From IMG/VR virus record IMGVR_UViG_2617270980_000009: 11,347 bases of DNA. The stretch is one strand, 5' to 3'. Below, piece by piece: positions 1 to 11,347 of the stretch. The stretch is from a virus. Its lineage: Duplodnaviria > Heunggongvirae > Uroviricota > Caudoviricetes. Below the pieces are notes generated by a model. It worked only from the letters and a program-made list of their open reading frames with translations, did not search any database and was not told where the DNA came from. A program made the position numbers and the translations under genes. How positions within the stretch are numbered: position 1 is the first letter of the stretch; each line of letters opens with the position of its first letter.

Positions 1-261
1 TGAGTTTTTTAAATGGCGGAAAATCGTGTTGAGGCCAACGCCCATAATGCGGGCGGTTGCCCGGCATCCAACGCCATTCATGGCCATATCAATGATTTTC
101 TGGTGCGTACCGGGTTGAGAAGCGGTGTAAGTGAACTGCAGTTGCCATGTTTTACGGCAGTGAGAGCAGAGATAGCGCTGATGTCCGGCAGTGCTTTTGC
201 CGTTACGCACCACCCCGTCAGTAGCTGAACAGGAGGGACAGCTGATAGAAACAGAAGCCAC
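1..261 (-). CDS. insA: IS1 InsA transposase-regulator, 3'-truncated by the window edge; GTG start at 259-261 (minus strand)
   Basis: Minus-strand translation from the GTG gives [86 protein letters not shown], which matches IS1 InsA from memory. It is absent from the supplied ORF track, presumably because of the GTG start and because it runs off the window. Confidence 0.85.
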
Positions 262-316
262 TGGAGCACCTCAAAAACACCATCATACACTAAATCAGTA
301 AGTTGGCAGCATCACC
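1..316 (-). mobile_element. IS1: IS1 insertion sequence, partial: the IRL-proximal 316 bp; the rest lies beyond the left window edge
   Basis: Reverse complement of 253-316 reads GGTGATGCTGCCAACTTACTGATTTAGTGTATGATGGTGTTTTTGAGGTGCTCCAGTGGCTTCT, which matches the IS1 left terminal inverted repeat and insA leader as I recall them. The minus strand of 1-261 translates to an InsA-like protein. The element boundary is at 316; unrelated flank starts at 317 (atatgcggt...). Confidence 0.9.
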
Positions 317-483
317 ATATGCGGTTATCGTATTGGCCTGTCCATCCTTTGTCGTTATGTTCCTGCCTAACCGGCTCCGTCACAAAAAGTACCGTGATGC
401 TTTTTTTGAATTTCCGCAAAACACATATTTATCAGCGGTTGTTATTCTGACTCTGTTTAATTCAGAAACAGGCAGAAAAGACG

Positions 484-2538
484 ATGTCAGACTCCAAGTG
501 GAAAATGCTCTCCGCCATGCCCGGAGAGTTTTCAGTCAAGGTTGCCGGTGGCACGGTGGCATTTATTGAAAGCCCTTTCCGCCCTTCGGGTAATAAAGGG
601 GGGATCACCTTCGCAGACTGCGTGATCCGCTTCAGCACGAAAGAGCCATTATGGGTAATGCCGGTATCCGGTAATCCCAGTGCAGAAATCACCAGTTCAG
701 GCGTGACTGGCATCATTCCAATCACATCTGACGTGGCCGGAACGCTCACGCCCTCCGACTGGAATGCACCGGATAACGCCGGGCCTTCCGGTAGCACGAA
801 TGGCAGCAGTTCAGAGCCGGAATATTACTTTGTTGTCATTCTCGCGGGTCAGTCAAATGGCATGGCCTACGGCGAGGGGCTGCCGTTACCGGATTCGTTT
901 GACCGCCCGGACCCACGCATTAAGCAACTGGCACGCCGCAGTACGGTAACGCCCAACGGTACGTCGTGTACATACAACGACATCATTCCGGCAGACCACT
1001 GCCTGCATGATGTTCAGGATATGAGCGGGATAAACCACCCGAAAGCTGATCTGGCAAAAGGCCAGTACGGGACTGTCGGTCAGGGGTTGCATATTGCCAA
1101 AAAACTGCTTCCCTATATCCCACAGAATGCGGGGATACTTCTGGTGCCCTGTTGTCGTGGCGGGGCAGCATTCACCACTGGAGCCGACGGCTCATTCAGT
1201 GAGGCCAGCGGTGCTTCCGCTGATTCTTCACGCTGGGGGGCCGGTAAACCTCTGTATCAGGACCTGGTAAGCCGCACCAAAGTCGCGCTGGCGAAAAACC
1301 CGAAAAACAAACTTCTGGCTGTGGTCTGGATGCAGGGAGAGGCAGACCTTGCCTCAGGAAGCCAGCAGCATAATAGTTTATTCACGGCCATGGTTCAGCA
1401 GTTCAGAACTGACCTGGCTCCGCTTGCTGCGCAGTGCGTGAGTGGAAATGCCACCACGGTGCCGTGGATTTGCGGTGATACCACGTATTACTGGAAAAAC
1501 GCTGGCACCGATAAATATGAGGCAGTATACGGTGGCTACAAAGGCAAGGAAGCACAGAAAATTTTCTTTGTACCGTTCCTGACGGATGAGAATGGACAGA
1601 GCACGCCAACGAATGCTCCGGCGGAAGACCCGGATATTGTGGCTGTCGGGTATTACGGTGCAGCATCCCGAACCCAGGGCAGTTTTGTTTCGACACAGCG
1701 TGACAGCCATTTCAGCTCATGGGCACGCAGGGGCGTCATTTCAGACCGTCTGGCCTCAGCTATTATGCTCCATGCAGGGCGCACGGCTGAACTGATGCGC
1801 GGGCAGACCGTGACACCACCGGATGAGAAGCCGTCACCTGATACACCATCAAAACCGTCCACGCCACCCGCAGACACCACGACGATGAGTACGCTATTTG
1901 CTTACCGGGCATCTGAGTCTGAAGGACGGTTGACACCACAGGGTTGGGCTGCCGGAGGTGGCAAGGCTCAAATCGTGGATGATGCCGGAGCTAGCGGGGG
2001 TAAGGCAATGAAACTGACCAAGGAAACAGGAAGAGCCCCCTGGTACCTTGAGCATGATGCTGGTAATGGTGCGGACCTGCTGGGTAAAGGTGGTCTTGTC
2101 AGTTGTCGTTTTAAACTCGATGGCGCGCTTACGGCTAATCAGTATGCACTGGCGCTGTACTGGCCGGTTTCTGCCCTGCCGCAAGGGGTTACTCTGGAAG
2201 GAAATGCCGGTCATAACCTGCTGGCATCGTTCTACGTACAGAGCGATGCCACAGACCTTAACGTGATGTATCACAAAGGAAACACGGCGCAGAACACGAA
2301 GCTGGGGTCATTCGGCGCATTTAATAACGAATGGCATACGCTGGGCTTCCGTTTTGCCGGTAACAACAGTATTGAGGTGACGCCGGTCATTGATGGTAAG
2401 GACGGGACACCATTCATGCTGTCGCAGTCTCCGGTCGGCACGTTTACGGCAGACAAGTTGCGCGTGACCGATATCACTAAAAATGCGACTTACCCGGTAC
2501 TGATTGACAGTATCGTGGTGGAAGTGAATAACGCGTAA
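484..2538 (+). CDS. SGNH/DUF303-family esterase, prophage NanS-p-like sialate (9-O-acetyl) O-acetylesterase, with a Pro/Thr-rich linker and a C-terminal ~230-aa beta-rich (lectin-like?) domain
   Basis: 684-aa ORF. A stop in the same frame at 448-450 makes the ATG at 484 the first available start; a weak SD (cagg/gaaaag) lies upstream. It carries a GQSN esterase motif (VVILAGQSNGMAYGEG) and downstream LLAVVWMQGEAD, typical of the sialate O-acetylesterase (SASA/DUF303) family. Linker TPPDEKPSPDTPSKPSTPPADTTT sits at about aa 440-465. The family assignment is from recall, not a search. Confidence 0.6.
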   Translation: MSDSKWKMLSAMPGEFSVKVAGGTVAFIESPFRPSGNKGGITFADCVIRFSTKEPLWVMPVSGNPSAEITSSGVTGIIPITSDVAGTLTPSDWNAPDNAGPSGSTNGSSSEPEYYFVVILAGQSNGMAYGEGLPLPDSFDRPDPRIKQLARRSTVTPNGTSCTYNDIIPADHCLHDVQDMSGINHPKADLAKGQYGTVGQGLHIAKKLLPYIPQNAGILLVPCCRGGAAFTTGADGSFSEASGASADSSRWGAGKPLYQDLVSRTKVALAKNPKNKLLAVVWMQGEADLASGSQQHNSLFTAMVQQFRTDLAPLAAQCVSGNATTVPWICGDTTYYWKNAGTDKYEAVYGGYKGKEAQKIFFVPFLTDENGQSTPTNAPAEDPDIVAVGYYGAASRTQGSFVSTQRDSHFSSWARRGVISDRLASAIMLHAGRTAELMRGQTVTPPDEKPSPDTPSKPSTPPADTTTMSTLFAYRASESEGRLTPQGWAAGGGKAQIVDDAGASGGKAMKLTKETGRAPWYLEHDAGNGADLLGKGGLVSCRFKLDGALTANQYALALYWPVSALPQGVTLEGNAGHNLLASFYVQSDATDLNVMYHKGNTAQNTKLGSFGAFNNEWHTLGFRFAGNNSIEVTPVIDGKDGTPFMLSQSPVGTFTADKLRVTDITKNATYPVLIDSIVVEVNNA

Positions 2539-2553
2539 GCAGGATAAAAAAAT

Positions 2554-2588
2554 CCCGCCGGTCAAAGAGCCATTTGTTGACTGGCGGG
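2554..2588. terminator. Hairpin (12-bp stem with one G-U pair, 11-nt loop) immediately 3' of the esterase gene; the T-tract is on the minus-strand side
   Basis: cccgccggtcaa (2554-2565) pairs with ttgactggcggg (2577-2588). On the plus strand it is preceded by aaaaaaa (2546-2552) and followed by non-U-rich sequence, so as an intrinsic terminator it reads better for leftward (minus-strand) transcription. Confidence 0.35.
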
Positions 2589-2703
2589 GGATATTCCAAA
2601 CCCATTAAGGAAAGCTACAACCTCTGACAAAGAAGACCATTATGTACGCGGTTACTTTTTAGCTGAAAACTGTTTCTGTAGTCAATATCAAAGGTAAGGT
2701 TAT

Positions 2704-2886
2704 ATGACATTTGTTCATACGATGCTGCTTTATTTCTGCACTGTGGTCAGTGCGTTATATCTGGTGAGCGGTGGTTATAAGGCCATCAGAAATTATGTTC
2801 GCCGCAAAATTGATGACGCAGCAGCTGAAAAGCTCAGTAAAACAGCGCAGGCAACTCCGCTCCCAAAAGACCCGACCCAGCCCTGA
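2704..2886 (+). CDS. Hypothetical small protein (60 aa) with one N-terminal hydrophobic helix and a charged Pro-rich tail
   Basis: ATG at 2704 preceded by aaggtaaggt (2691-2700). N-terminal MLLYFCTVVSALYLVSGG is hydrophobic. No family recognised. Confidence 0.45.
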   Translation: MTFVHTMLLYFCTVVSALYLVSGGYKAIRNYVRRKIDDAAAEKLSKTAQATPLPKDPTQP

Positions 2887-2921
2887 TTGCAGGGCTGTAT
2901 TCCCACATAAGGAGGATATAC

Positions 2922-3176
2922 ATGCCAGAGATTAAAGGCACCGTCACTGAAGTCCTGGTAAAACAGGCACTGTATTCCGGTGAAGTAAATAAATTACTGA
3001 AAGCGCAGGTCCGCAAGGATTTTGAGGCACAAATCGACACTTACGTTGATGAAGTGCTGGCAAAACTTATTGGGCCAGCAGTTGCGGCCAGTGATGCTGA
3101 TAATGAGCCGAAAACCGACGCGCAGCCAGAGCAACCAGACCCGGCTCAGCCCGGAACTGACAGTACCATGATGTAA
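2922..3176 (+). CDS. Hypothetical acidic protein (84 aa) with a Pro/Gln/Asp-rich C-terminus
   Basis: Consensus SD aaggagg (2909-2915) sits 6 nt upstream of ATG 2922. Followed by a short palindrome aaaccgg...ccggttt (3184-3208). No family recognised. Confidence 0.5.
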   Translation: MPEIKGTVTEVLVKQALYSGEVNKLLKAQVRKDFEAQIDTYVDEVLAKLIGPAVAASDADNEPKTDAQPEQPDPAQPGTDSTMM

Positions 3177-3343
3177 CAATACAAACCGGTGGTGTCCTCT
3201 GCCGGTTTGACACTAATGAAAACATCTTTGCCGCTATCCAGCCATATGTAATCGCTGGATAGTATTTCGTATTCAGAAATATAGCTGCTTATGGAGCAGT
3301 CAATCCTGCTTCCCCATCCGGGCAGGCAAATGAACCGGTATCA

Positions 3344-3637
3344 TTAGTCCGATTCACGCTTTTGTAGAATCGTTCCCAGAATGCTATACAGCTCATTAGC
3401 CTGTTGCTCCATCATTGAGACGGAGGCTATACGGTGCAAAGTGATTTCAGGAGGTGGCACACCTCCATCTTCTTGCTGTGGAGGAAAAACATAAGATTTA
3501 ATAAAAAAGTTGAAGCATATGAACTCTCCCGCACTCGAACTGTATTTGCAGGCATCTGAATAATCGGAAAAATAATCATTATAGATTTCCGCATTTTCAA
3601 TCATTTTTCGATTTCTCGTCGTTACATGATTGTCCAT
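3344..3637 (-). CDS. Hypothetical protein (97 aa) in an AT-rich island, transcribed divergently from the com/mom-like pair
   Basis: Minus-strand ORF with SD aagagg (reverse complement of 3643-3648) 5 nt upstream of its ATG (3637-3635). Codon usage is AT-rich and unlike the flanking lambdoid genes. No family recognised. Confidence 0.5.
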   Translation of the reverse strand: MDNHVTTRNRKMIENAEIYNDYFSDYSDACKYSSSAGEFICFNFFIKSYVFPPQQEDGGVPPPEITLHRIASVSMMEQQANELYSILGTILQKRESD

Positions 3638-3760
3638 AGCAGCCTCTTACGCTGGCAATTAACCAATTGACTTCTATAAATTAGTTGATTTGTTTGCTTT
3701 GCGGTATTCAAATGTACAATCATTCAGCACTTATGCGTTACAGCACCGTTTAAAATTAGT

Positions 3761-3850
3761 GATCAAACTCATAAATTTTCGCTAATGACATTTCGTGTTA
3801 TTTGTTGTATCAATTAAATAAATCAAATCGATCGTTTTTGTCGATCGATT
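3761..3850. promoter_or_regulatory. Putative regulatory region upstream of com: perfect inverted repeat AATCGATCG-n7-CGATCGATT (3826-3850) and three GATC (Dam) sites at 3761, 3830 and 3843
   Basis: Read directly from the sequence. Both arms contain the palindrome CGATCG. The region lies in the 256-bp AT-rich divergent intergenic space between the 97-aa ORF and com. Confidence 0.4.
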
Positions 3851-3893
3851 GAGTGATAAAGATATCAACAACAAAGCAGGAGGTTATGCGGCC

Positions 3894-4094
3894 ATGTATC
3901 GAAACATACGGTGCCGACATTGTAACAAGCTACTGGCACGAGCCAGCTTCAGTTATCTGGAAGTCAAATGTCCGCGCTGTAAAACCCTCAATCAAATCAC
4001 ATCTCAGAGCGCCACAGAGCACCCCACATACACAAGGAAATCCTGTCGTGGGGAACAGAAAGCAAGTTACATCCCGTATCATCAGCACGCCTGA
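3894..4094 (+). CDS. com: Com-like zinc-finger translational activator (phage Mu Com homolog), 66 aa
   Basis: [45 protein letters not shown]... aligns with Mu Com as I recall it (MKSIRCKNCNKLLFKADSFDHIEIRCPRCKRHII...EHPTEK), including the CxxC...CPRC zinc-binding cysteines. SD aggagg (3878-3883) is 10 nt upstream of ATG 3894. The track ORF start at 3849 is rejected because it has no SD. Confidence 0.7.
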
Positions 4095-4785
4095 ACTTAT
4101 TCACTATAACGACAATATCGTCGGTTATGGCTCCCGTGAGTTACGGGTTGAGACAATAAGTTGCTGGCTGGCCCGGCTGGTCGTCGTCAATAAACATTAC
4201 AGCCATCGTTTCGTAAATAATTCCTACCTTCATCTGGGCATATTTTCAGAACGGGAGCTGGTTGGCGTAATGCAATGGGGTTATGCCCTTAATCCAAACA
4301 ATGGTGCACGCGTCGTAACTGGCACGCAGAACCGCGAATATATGGAGCTTAACCGGTTATGGCTGCATGACTGTATGCCGAGAAACTCCGAATCAAGGGC
4401 AATCAGTTACGCGCTCAAACTAATCAGACAACTTTATCCGCAGGTGCAGTGGGTTCAGTCGTTTGCAGATGAGCGTTGTGGCTGTCTTGGTGTCGTGTAC
4501 CAGGCAAGCAATTTTGATTATGTAGGCAGTCATGAAACAACATTCTATGAACTTGATGGCGAGTGGTATCACGAGATTTGCAAGAATGCAATCAAACGAG
4601 GAGGACAGCGAGGTGAACATCTGCGGGCTAATATCGACAGAGCCAGTGTTCATAAATTCCGTCAGTTTCGTTACATCCGGTTTCTGGACAAGAGAGCCAG
4701 AAAACGCCTTAACACAAAGCTATTCAAAGTCCAGCCTTACCCAAAACCACAAACAGTTAAAACTGGTTTGAAAGAGAGTGAATGA
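4048..4785 (+). CDS. mom: Mom-like DNA modification protein (phage Mu Mom homolog, adenine-modifying anti-restriction function); start inferred as GTG 4048, overlapping the 3' end of com
   Basis: Long ORF in frame 1 directly overlapping a Com homolog, as in Mu. There is no in-frame ATG between 3886 and about codon 137, whereas GTG 4048 has an upstream AGGA (4035-4038) and gives ~245 aa, close to Mu Mom (~231 aa). Assignment rests mainly on synteny with com and on size; I cannot verify Mom sequence motifs from memory. Confidence 0.55.
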
Positions 4786-5701
4786 ACGCTTAAAAACTCA
4801 TTCTAAAACTCAAAAGAAAAGCGCCGATTTAGTATCAAATAAGTTGCGTATCGGCGTTTTTCAGCGGTATCAAATGAAATGCAAATCGGTATCAAAAAAA
4901 TCGCCGCGCTATAGTATCCGTGAGAACGACGACGGCACGTATGCCATCACCGCCGTGCAGCATGTACCGGAAAAAGAGGCCATCGTGGATAACGGGGCGC
5001 ACTTTGACGGCGACCAGAGCGGCACGGTGAATGGTGTCACGCCGCCAGCGGTGCAGCACCTGACCGCCGAAGTCACCGCAGACAGCGGGGAATATCAGGT
5101 GCTGGCGCGCTGGGACACGCCGAAGGTGGTGAAGGGCGTGAACTTCCTGCTCCGTCTGACCGTAACAGCGGATGACGGCAGTGAGCGGCTGGTCAGCACG
5201 GCCCGGACGACGGAAACCACATACCGCTTCAGGCAACTGGCGCTGGGGCGTTACACGCTGACGGTCCGGGCGGTAAATGTGTGGGGACAGCAGGGCGATC
5301 CGGCGTCGGTATCGTTCCGGATTGCCGCCCCGGCAGCGCCGTCGCGGATTGAGCTGACGCCGGGCTATTTTCAGATAACTGCCACGCCGCATCTTGCGGT
5401 TTATGATCCGACGGTACAGTTTGAGTTCTGGTTCTCGGAAACGCGGATTACCGATATCAGGCAGGTTGAAACCACAGCCCGCTACCTTGGCACGGGACTG
5501 TACTGGATAGCCGCCAGTATCAATATCAAACCGGGCCATGATTATTATTTTTACGTTCGCAGTGTGAACACCGTTGGCAAATCGGCATTCGTGGAGGCCG
5601 TCGGTCAGCCGAGTGATGATGCAGAAGGCTACCTGGATTTTTTCAAAGGCAAGATACCGAATCCCATCTCGGTAAAGAGCTGCTGGAAAAAGTTGATCTG
5701 A
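4778..5701 (+). pseudogene. J: Lambda J-like host specificity (central tail fibre) gene, internal fragment: 5'-truncated remnant (J homology starts near 4907) ending at a frameshift
   Basis: From about codon 44 the translation ([35 protein letters not shown]...YLDFFKGK) matches the C-terminal third of lambda J as I recall it. The first ~43 codons are AT-rich junction sequence. A 1-nt loss near 5654-5657 (ata-ccg where a functional gene would read ata-acc-gaa) shifts the frame and gives a premature stop at 5699-5701. Confidence 0.8.
4821..4861 (+). terminator. Possible rho-independent terminator after the mom-like gene
   Basis: gcgccgat (4821-4828) pairs with atcggcg (4850-4856), followed by ttttt (4857-4861). 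The 21-nt loop is long, so confidence is low. Confidence 0.35.
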
Positions 5702-5802
5702 CGGAGGATAACGCCAGCAGACTGGATGAGTTCTCAAAAGACTGGAAGGACGCGAACGATACAGAAAGTTCAGGTTGATACAAATAATAACCTGAACAGC
5801 AT

Positions 5803-6630
5803 GTGGGCTGTGAAGCTGAGCAGACCAAAGACGGAAAACATTATATTGCGGGTATCGGTGCCGGTATTGAGAACACCCCCGACGGCATGCAGAGTCAGGT
5901 GCTGCTGGCGGCAGACAGGATTGCGATGATTAATCCTGCGAATGGCAACACAAAGCCGATGTTTGTTGGTCAGGGCGATCAGATATTCATGAACGACGTG
6001 TTCCTGAAGCGCCTGACAGCCCCCACCATTACCAGCGGTGGCAGTCCTCCGGTATTTTCCCTGACACCAGACGGGCGACTGACGGCGAAAAATGCGGATA
6101 TCAGTGGCAGTGTGAATGCGAACGCCGGGACGCTAAACAACGTCACGATAAATGAGAACTGTACGATTAAGGGCATGCTGGAGGCGACCCAGGTCAGAGG
6201 CGATTTCGTTAAAACAGTATCCAAATCATTCCCGAAGAAGGCTGGTACGTGGGGTAACACGGAAACACCAAACGGGACGGTTACAGTCACTATCAGCGAT
6301 GATCATAACTTTGACCGTCAAATCATTATTCCGCCCATTATTTTTAACGGTGTGGCGTATGACGATCCTGGGAGCGGAAATAACCCCGGAGGCACGAGAT
6401 ACACAGGTTATGGTTTTGAAGTTCGCAAAAACGGCGTATTAATCGCATCCAGAGAAACTAAAGGGGCCATTCCCGGTAGTTACAGTGCAGTTATTGATAT
6501 GCCTAGTGGTGGTGGAAGCGTCACTCTGGAGTTTAAGATTTTCCAGAAAGGCAATCAGGGGGCAGGCAATATCACCGACTGTACGGTGATTGTGACCAAA
6601 AAGGCTGCTTCCGGCATCAGTATTCGTTGA
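5803..6630 (+). pseudogene. J: Lambda J-like host specificity gene, C-terminal receptor-binding portion, separated from the upstream fragment by frameshifts
   Basis: Translation [14 protein letters not shown]...[37 protein letters not shown]...GISIR matches the lambda J C-terminus from memory. J-like coding between 5659 and 5820 continues in other frames: [34 protein letters not shown] in frame 1 up to the stop at 5776-5778, then [18 protein letters not shown] in frame 2. Confidence 0.8.
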
Positions 6631-10763: not shown

Positions 10764-11347
10764 TGGCATTCAGAATGAGTGAACAAGCACGGACCATAAA
10801 AATTTATAATCTGCTGGCCGGAACTAATGAATTTATTGGTGAAGGTGACGCATATATTCCGCCTCATACAGGTCTGCCAGCAAACAGTACCGATATTGCA
10901 CCACCAGATATTCCGGCAGGCTTCGTGGCTGTTTTCAACAGTGATGAGGCATCGTGGCATCTCGTTGAAGACCATCGGGGTAAAACGGTTTATGACGTGG
11001 CTTCCGGCGACGCGTTATTTATTTCTGAACTCGGTCCGTTACCGGAAAATGTTACCTGGTTGTCGCCGGGAGGGGAATATCAGAAGTGGAACGGCACAGC
11101 CTGGGTGAATGATACGGAAGCAGAAAAACTGTTCCGGATCCGGGAGGCAGAAGAAACAAAAAACAGCCTGATGCAGGTAGCCAGTGAGCATATTGCGCCA
11201 CTTCAGGATGCTGTAGATCTGGAAATCGCAACGGAGGAAGAAACCTTGTTGCTGGAAGCCTGGAAAAAGTATCGGGTGTTGCTGAACCGTGTTAATACAA
11301 CAACTGCACCGGATATTGAATGGCCAACAGTACCCATTATCGAATAG
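10763..11347 (+). CDS. tfa: Tail fibre assembly chaperone Tfa, 194 aa; the stop codon is the last three bases of the window
   Basis: [79 protein letters not shown]... is near-identical to lambda Tfa as I recall it. Translationally coupled to stf. Confidence 0.9.

Follow-up and report, generated by a model that had tools for sequence, protein, structure and literature searches.

The com-mom gene pair in the window (the entire stretch of viral DNA analyzed here, 11,347 nucleotides of IMG/VR record IMGVR_UViG_2617270980_000009) lies at the extreme right end of a truncated Mu-type prophage. In the reading that we favor, with a probability of roughly 0.92, the segment 317-4913 is the right end of a phage resembling Sp18, a known Mu-like prophage of E. 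coli O157:H7 Sakai; this phage inserted itself by transposition into J, a gene of a Qin-like lambdoid prophage, and was trimmed by IS1, and its terminal com-mom module works as it does in Mu. The first-pass annotation had recognized the two genes but placed them outside a Mu genome, as what may be a transferable anti-restriction cassette in a lambdoid mosaic. Neither statement survives the comparison with complete prophages: the segment is 99.9% collinear with the end of an Sp18-like Mu-type prophage, its right border is a Mu-type terminus, and its left border is formed by IS1, which has cut into Mu-like DNA. What is left is a remnant rather than a prophage able to transpose, with IS1 in place of everything to the left of position 317. 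The features are listed in Table 1.

Table 1 Features of the window, from left to right, with the basis for each assignment
Feature	Position	Strand	Description and basis
IS1 end	1-316		window begins inside the element; the last base of its terminal inverted repeat ...GGCAGCATCACC is 316, directly followed by Mu-like DNA
Right-terminal 4.6-kb fragment of Sp18-like Mu-type transposable prophage	317-4913	+	collinearity with full-length copies
NanS-like carbohydrate esterase (SASA + DUF6645)	484-2538	+	Pfam: SASA 4.7e-13, DUF6645 7.4e-68
DUF1378 small protein	2704-2886	+	Pfam 5.4e-35
DUF826 small protein	2922-3176	+	Pfam 1.2e-14
Orphan ORF	3344-3637	-	97 aa; RefSeq start at 3604 gives 86 aa
Palindrome AATCGATCG-N7-CGATCGATT	3826-3850		inverted-repeat detection; alignment with Mu and other Sp18-like variants
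com	3894-4094	+	66 aa, ATG start; zinc-ribbon translational activator of mom; Pfam, PHROG, BLASTP
Com RNA recognition motif CC-ACA-GAG	4012-4019	+	fits CC(N)2-3GAG as defined in PMC6483171
mom translation-inhibition hairpin (predicted)	4022-4053	+	RNA fold
mom	4048-4785	+	245 aa, GTG start; GNAT-fold, tRNA(Gly)-dependent adenine N6 modification enzyme by homology
GTATCAAA, three copies	4832, 4867, 4889 (span 4832-4896)	+	candidate transposase-binding sites of the right end
Right terminus of Mu-like prophage (...GCGCTATA)	4913		three-way alignment diverges after this base; J homology starts
3' remnant of lambdoid tail-tip gene J	4914-6630	+	starts at codon 575 of 1137

The resemblance of the shorter ORF to the zinc finger of Mu Com, noticed on first reading, is borne out by three comparisons. 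The predicted protein matches the Pfam family Zn_ribbon_Com (PF10122; E = 7.5e-13, 48.2 bits with a cut-off of 22.9) and the PHROG described as 'gpCom control of modification', and is 45% identical to Mu Com (BLASTP, E = 2e-14). The BLASTP alignment takes in non-cysteine positions (IRC.CNKLL, CPRCK, EHPT), so that the match involves more than cysteine spacing, and a chance alignment over that spacing, a concern raised at the outset, is ruled out. The zinc-binding CCCC set is kept, Cys7, Cys10, Cys26 and Cys29 corresponding to Cys6, Cys9, Cys26 and Cys29 of Mu Com. The gene is preceded by a Shine-Dalgarno sequence (AGGAGG, 9 nt upstream of the ATG) and is located directly 5' of mom, which it overlaps, with both an RNA target for Com and a hairpin hiding the mom start present in the sequence.

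The longer ORF, previously described only as being of Mom-like size from its GTG codon at 4048, encodes a full-length Mom. It covers the entire Pfam model of the family (PF25680, model positions 1-202 of 202; E = 1.6e-77, 260.2 bits with a cut-off of 27.1), is 78% identical to Mu Mom across the full length (BLASTP, E = 5e-140), and matches the crystal structure of Mu Mom (PDB 8bv8) with an E-value of 2.4e-123; a lack of significant similarity to Mom is thus ruled out by the Pfam and BLASTP searches. The GTG start aligns with the homologous GTG of Mu mom. Both proteins are identical to RefSeq entries that are encoded by full-length prophages (WP_014334043.1 for Com and WP_000528246.1 for Mom). 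A search of NCBIfam gave no matches for Com or Mom, although RefSeq names both.

The chemistry of Mu Mom was described in a 2026 structural and biochemical study (PMC13219725), according to which the enzyme takes glycine from Gly-tRNA(Gly) and attaches it to adenine N6 in double-stranded DNA; N6-carbamoylmethyl-adenine then forms by rearrangement on the base. In the same work, R111, S124, D149 and R151 were required for activity, alanine at H58, Y59, W48, Y159 or W181 sharply reduced it, Y28A had little effect, and a helix-turn-helix (HTH)-like insertion (residues 175-209) was required (PMC13219725). The residue numbers in that study count from an ATG located 10 codons upstream of the annotated GTG, and this 10-residue offset was corrected before the comparison. 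All 10 residues probed by mutagenesis (Y28, W48, H58, Y59, R111, S124, D149, R151, Y159 and W181) are kept in the window Mom, and 28 of the 35 residues of the HTH-like insertion are identical to those of Mu Mom. That the similarity of Com and Mom is spurious, or that the genes are pseudogenes, is next to impossible given the Pfam E-values for the two proteins and the BLASTP E-value for Mu Mom; moreover, both ORFs are full-length and uninterrupted, and the residues tested in Mu Mom are retained.

The two genes are arranged as in Mu, with com overlapping the 5' end of mom, in agreement with the original description; the overlap is 47 nt in the window and 50 nt in Mu. The RNA motif recognized by Com is CC(N)2-3GAG (PMC6483171), and its counterpart in the window is found 2 nt 5' of the predicted inhibitory hairpin; in Mu, the motif is CC-UGC-GAG and the distance is 3 nt. 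In the predicted stem, CCCCAC (4022-4027) pairs with GUGGGG (4048-4053), so that the GUG start codon of mom falls within the stem, and the mom Shine-Dalgarno sequence AAGGAA (4034-4039) is enclosed by the hairpin. The fold energy is -12.6 kcal/mol (z = -2.35), and Mu RNA is predicted to form an equivalent hairpin. A further short hairpin, which in Mu lies upstream and presents the Com motif, is only weakly predicted in the window. At the level of the nucleotide sequence, the Com-dependent translational switch is conserved.

The identity of the surrounding DNA is established by comparison with complete prophages of about 39 kb. The segment 317-4913 is collinear with the right end of the full-length JE86-ST05 prophage (99.89% identity over 4,597 bp), as is characteristic of an Sp18-like Mu-type prophage, and is 99.3% identical to the prophage ends of AF39 and 600029. 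The block consisting of the genes for a nanS-like esterase, DUF1378, DUF826, a small ORF, com and mom, in this order, forms the right end of the prophage in JE86-ST05, AF39, the O157 strain F7508 and 600029. The gene content of the full-length prophages is that of a Mu-type phage: transposase A, the AAA ATPase B, Kil, Gam and a repressor region of Mu type; a Mor/C-family activator gene that adjoins the lysozyme gene; Mu-type structural genes (head protein gpT, sheath, tube, baseplate); and invertible tail-fibre genes accompanied by a gin-like recombinase. The fragment in the window has lost the left-hand genes, namely, those for the repressor, transposase A/B, C, lysis, head and tail proteins, and gin, and starts at 317, just downstream of the gin position. 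The host gene directly 3' of the block differs from genome to genome (citF, dcyD, garL, or an sgrR-like gene), as expected of a transposable phage. By megablast of positions 3640-4900, the com-mom module is present in 233 of 5,426 complete E. coli genomes, where RefSeq labels it as a Com family regulator and Mom; com-mom sites in the E. coli genome collection number roughly 285.

A tRNA-like element was observed amid the head-morphogenesis genes of the full-length prophage (in 600029, L011 20674-20753, minus strand; labelled tRNA-OTHER in AF39, L005). It scores 31 bits against the Rfam tRNA model (cut-off 29), is negative with ARAGORN, and has a non-canonical anticodon arm. A link to tRNA(Gly), the co-substrate of Mom, was considered for this element and found no support, with the Rfam score borderline and the ARAGORN result negative.

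The right end of the prophage can be placed to the nucleotide. The window shares its sequence exactly with JE86 and AF39 as far as ...TCGCCGCGCTATA (4913), beyond which the three are unrelated, and the terminus ...GCGCTATA adjoins J, citF, dcyD and the sgrR-like gene in the respective genomes. The corresponding feature in the GenBank record LC727881 ends at the base equivalent to 4913, with a 4-bp duplication marked. Between the stop codon of mom and the terminus are 128 bp, compared with 115 bp in Mu. Three full-length insertions could be delimited at both ends: in AF39, the prophage interrupts dcyD, which was compared with an uninterrupted dcyD, and is flanked by the duplication TACA; in JE86, it is inserted in citF (duplication TTCG); and in 600029, in the sgrR-like gene (duplication AACA). 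Their left ends read TGTAACC... or TATAACC..., and the termini of the Sp18-like lineage are 5'-TGTA or TATA ... TATA-3', with 4 bp duplicated. A 5-bp target duplication was considered and rejected in all three of these insertions. It appears that the Sp18-like lineage transposes with 4-bp target duplications rather than the canonical 5-bp duplications of Mu.

Next to the terminus, the repeat GTATCAAA is present three times, and the left end of the full-length prophages carries three inverted copies, TTTGATAC; at both prophage ends, the first copy starts 18 nt from the terminus. These repeats are plausible transposase-binding sites. Unrelated insertion sites, short duplications and inverted terminal repeats together characterize 4913 as a phage terminus.

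To the right of this terminus, the DNA is lambdoid. The first retained base of J is nucleotide 1724, and from 4913 onward the window shows no difference from intact J genes (100% identity). The homology to J begins at codon 575 exactly at the phage terminus, hence the Mu-like phage transposed into J; the truncated lambda J-like gene just downstream of com-mom was correctly recognized from the start. The J remnant is additionally frameshifted, at least once, around 5660-5830, and is followed by lom, stf and tfa, in this order. For the insertion in J, the original left junction has been lost by deletion, and no target duplication can be demonstrated. Farther along the window, a full-length match to Rfam IS009 (230.8 bits) was observed at 11106-11304 on the plus strand, inside the tail-fibre assembly gene.

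On the left, the fragment is cut off by IS1. The inverted repeat of the element is located at 305-316, and strain 600029 has another IS1 copy, annotated as an IS1 family transposase, to which positions 1-316 are 100% identical. Among the database genomes, the Mu/J junction of the window is shared only by strain 600029, where it resides in a degraded Qin-like prophage. The left part of that locus runs from integrase through dicB to a Q gene broken by IS1, and is followed by holin, truncated ydfR, IS1, the Mu-like fragment, the J remnant, lom, stf, tfaQ and pinQ. This gene order is what one would see if the phage had transposed into J and an IS1-associated deletion had then spanned lambdoid morphogenesis genes together with most of the Mu-like genome. 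The window is not identical to the 600029 junction locus (98.1% identity, with IS1 in 600029 located 53 bp further left), and hence, for the genome from which the window comes, we infer the DNA beyond IS1. The 53-bp offset suggests either an IS1-adjacent deletion or independent events. Elsewhere in its genome, 600029 carries a separate full-length Mu-like prophage that encodes a C homolog; this copy is about 99.3% identical to the fragment across the shared block and so is not a recent duplicate. In the favored reading, the history of the locus comprises two steps: an Sp18-like phage transposed into J of a Qin-like lambdoid prophage, joining its right terminus at 4913 to J codon 575, and an IS1-associated deletion later took out the whole of the Mu-like genome left of position 317.

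Viewed from the window alone, the same region could pass for an anti-restriction cassette, autonomous and transferable, that entered a lambdoid tail-fibre region by mosaic recombination. The lambdoid genes J, lom, stf and tfa come after com-mom, the SASA/DUF6645, DUF1378 and DUF826 families upstream are common in lambdoid late regions, and Mom-family genes are found in many unrelated phage types. Yet, in every genome checked, the upstream 3.3 kb belongs to the Mu-like prophage, and in the phage collection this DNA has no close copy except the Mu-like inserts of two Stx-phage records. Furthermore, the right border coincides with a Mu-type terminus shared by independent transpositions, the left border is IS1 and not lambdoid DNA, and J is broken in the region of codon 575 and not swapped by module exchange. 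A lambdoid accessory ('moron') gene set is likewise not what the flanks reveal, Mu-like DNA and then IS1 being found on the left and J broken at the Mu terminus on the right. We consider acquisition as a cassette highly improbable: the module is a remnant of the known Sp18-like Mu phage type and not a new lambdoid cassette.

The lambdoid-looking genes upstream of com, for the nanS-like esterase, DUF1378 and DUF826, are standard cargo of the Mu-like lineage; in every Sp18-like prophage examined, the nanS-like gene is located between gin and com. The protein families encoded within 484-3176 are otherwise typical of the late region of lambdoid and Stx phages, and are here fixed as Mu-like cargo. 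Recent acquisition of the nanS-like block from lambdoid DNA was considered and rejected, with no close lambdoid match found. The only close copies of the cargo DNA in the phage collection are in two Stx phages, LC727881 and LC727895, which are also the phage-database matches of the fragment, and both records label it 'region of the inserted Bacteriophage Mu-like phage'.

The orphan ORF between DUF826 and com yielded no matches in Pfam, PHROGs, NCBIfam or PADLOC, and its homologs are restricted to E. coli and Shigella. The O157 Sp18-type prophages have a different gene in this position upstream of com, which indicates a variable accessory slot beside com. A promoter-like site of its own was observed at the orphan ORF. 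The PADLOC scan of the genes neighboring com-mom found nothing. The base composition changes along this part of the window, and the AT-rich island of the first-pass annotation holds insofar as the region is somewhat AT-rich, with a GC fraction of 0.35 in the spacer upstream of com and 0.47 in com-mom, compared with 0.54 in the J remnant.

The control region upstream of com (3799-3893) differs in layout from that of Mu. The palindrome in this region bears two Dam (GATC) sites, at 3830 and 3843, and is homologous, by alignment, to the region with GATC sites that precedes the mom promoter of Mu; it is 26 nt nearer to com than in Mu, where there are three GATC sites. When the layout of the Mu mom promoter (GATC region, C site and the -10 element TAAGAT) was superimposed on the window, the palindrome aligned, but with the spacing shorter by these 26 nt and with the C-site dyad absent; indeed, in the alignment with Mu, no dyad of the form TTAT-N6-ATAA is found in the control region upstream of com. 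A -10 candidate, AAAGAT (3857-3862), was rejected as it is not conserved in the O157 variant. The late-promoter motif TTCTGAnnTnCCGCAAAnCCnGCCC, which the full-length prophage has in front of both lys and I, is not evident upstream of com. No sigma-70 promoter was predicted on the plus strand upstream of com, which is consistent with dependence on an activator. The C homolog encoded by the full-length prophage (WP_000852372.1) shares only 40% identity with Mu C; given this divergence and the closer palindrome, transcriptional control of com-mom, to judge from the sequence, may differ from that in Mu.

By homology with Mu, we envisage that a weak late promoter upstream of com would be switched on by the C-type activator of the phage, with Dam methylation of the GATC palindrome influencing this promoter. 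The zinc-ribbon Com protein would bind CC-N3-GAG beside the hairpin that hides the Shine-Dalgarno sequence and GUG codon of mom, and this binding would open the hairpin and allow mom to be translated. Mom would then put glycine from Gly-tRNA(Gly) on N6 of adenine, the product would rearrange to N6-carbamoylmethyl-adenine, and the modified base would block many restriction enzymes. Neither the ORF list nor Pfam revealed a Mor/C-family gene within the window. For a remnant that lacks the C gene, expression probably needs a Mu-like phage, co-resident or infecting, which would supply C; otherwise, the remnant is probably silent.

Whether the fragment still has a role in its host is a separate matter. 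It might be a silent relic in which com and mom are intact only through recent truncation, are never expressed without C in cis, and have no function in the host. This would agree with the lack of both a Mor/C-family gene in the window and a sigma-70 consensus promoter upstream of com, as well as with the decay by frameshifts that is already under way in the adjoining J remnant; the expression of Mu mom is also described as toxic and tightly repressed (PMC3378877). Conversely, full-length prophages encode exactly the same Com and Mom proteins, and 600029, the sole database genome with the junction, has a full-length Mu-like prophage with a C homolog that could act in trans. On balance, we give the silent relic slightly less than even odds. 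A more speculative and rather unlikely scenario is that the orphan com-mom of a dead lambdoid prophage responds in trans to the C protein of an Sp18-like phage, co-resident or infecting, adding to the dosage of Mom or momylating the DNA of other prophages induced in that cell.

The locus as such is already known: the genes are in RefSeq, the mechanism and structure of Mom are published, and so are insertions of Mu-like phages into prophages. Accordingly, the significance beyond correct annotation is small. The case illustrates how a nested insertion, with a Mu-like phage inside a lambdoid prophage trimmed by IS1, can pass for a modular cassette when only the sequence is read. As minor leads, the locus and its full-length relatives offer the 4-bp duplication, the rearranged control region of mom, the tRNA-like element of the full-length prophage and the orphan ORF at 3344-3637. 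If the 4-bp duplications and the different layout of mom control are real, the lineage would be a useful natural variant for the geometry of Mu-type transposition and the regulation of mom.

Genes of the Mom-like GNAT family are also found in non-transposable phages (of Proteus, Listeria, Arthrobacter, Vibrio ICP1 and others) and belong to the same Pfam and PHROG family, but they are only 26-38% identical, often in partial matches, and occupy unrelated genome contexts; these genes are irrelevant to the origin of the window copy. The closest well-characterized system is the com-mom operon of Mu (AF083977, Mu_52/Mu_53), which shares with the window the gene order, the location at the very right end of the genome of the phage, the GUG start of mom inside an inhibitory hairpin with the CC-N3-GAG Com motif just upstream, a highly similar Mom with the tested residues kept, and upstream GATC sites in a conserved palindrome. 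It differs from the window in the more divergent Com, in the number of GATC sites, and in the TTAT-N6-ATAA C site, which is not recognizable in the window. Furthermore, com directly follows gin in Mu, whereas the Sp18-like lineage has about 3.4 kb of cargo between the two genes (nanS-like esterase, DUF1378, DUF826 and the orphan ORF). The terminal sequences (TG...CA in Mu) and the transposase-site motif are also different, as is the length of the target duplication, 4 bp in the Sp18-like lineage and 5 bp in Mu.

The fragment is of the same phage type as Sp18 and related Mu-like prophages of E. coli, with an identical right-end architecture, which in these prophages consists of gin, nanS-like, DUF1378, DUF826, a variable ORF, com, mom and the terminus. 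Unlike these prophages, the window has just the final 4.6 kb, with IS1 as its limit. In com-mom, identity between the window and the O157-type copies is 95.7%, and those copies have another gene in the variable slot. Insertion of such phages into other prophages is on record: among the Sp18-like Mu phages reported in STEC CC119 genomes, 6 of 10 were inserted in mobile elements, Stx phages included (PMC10132054).
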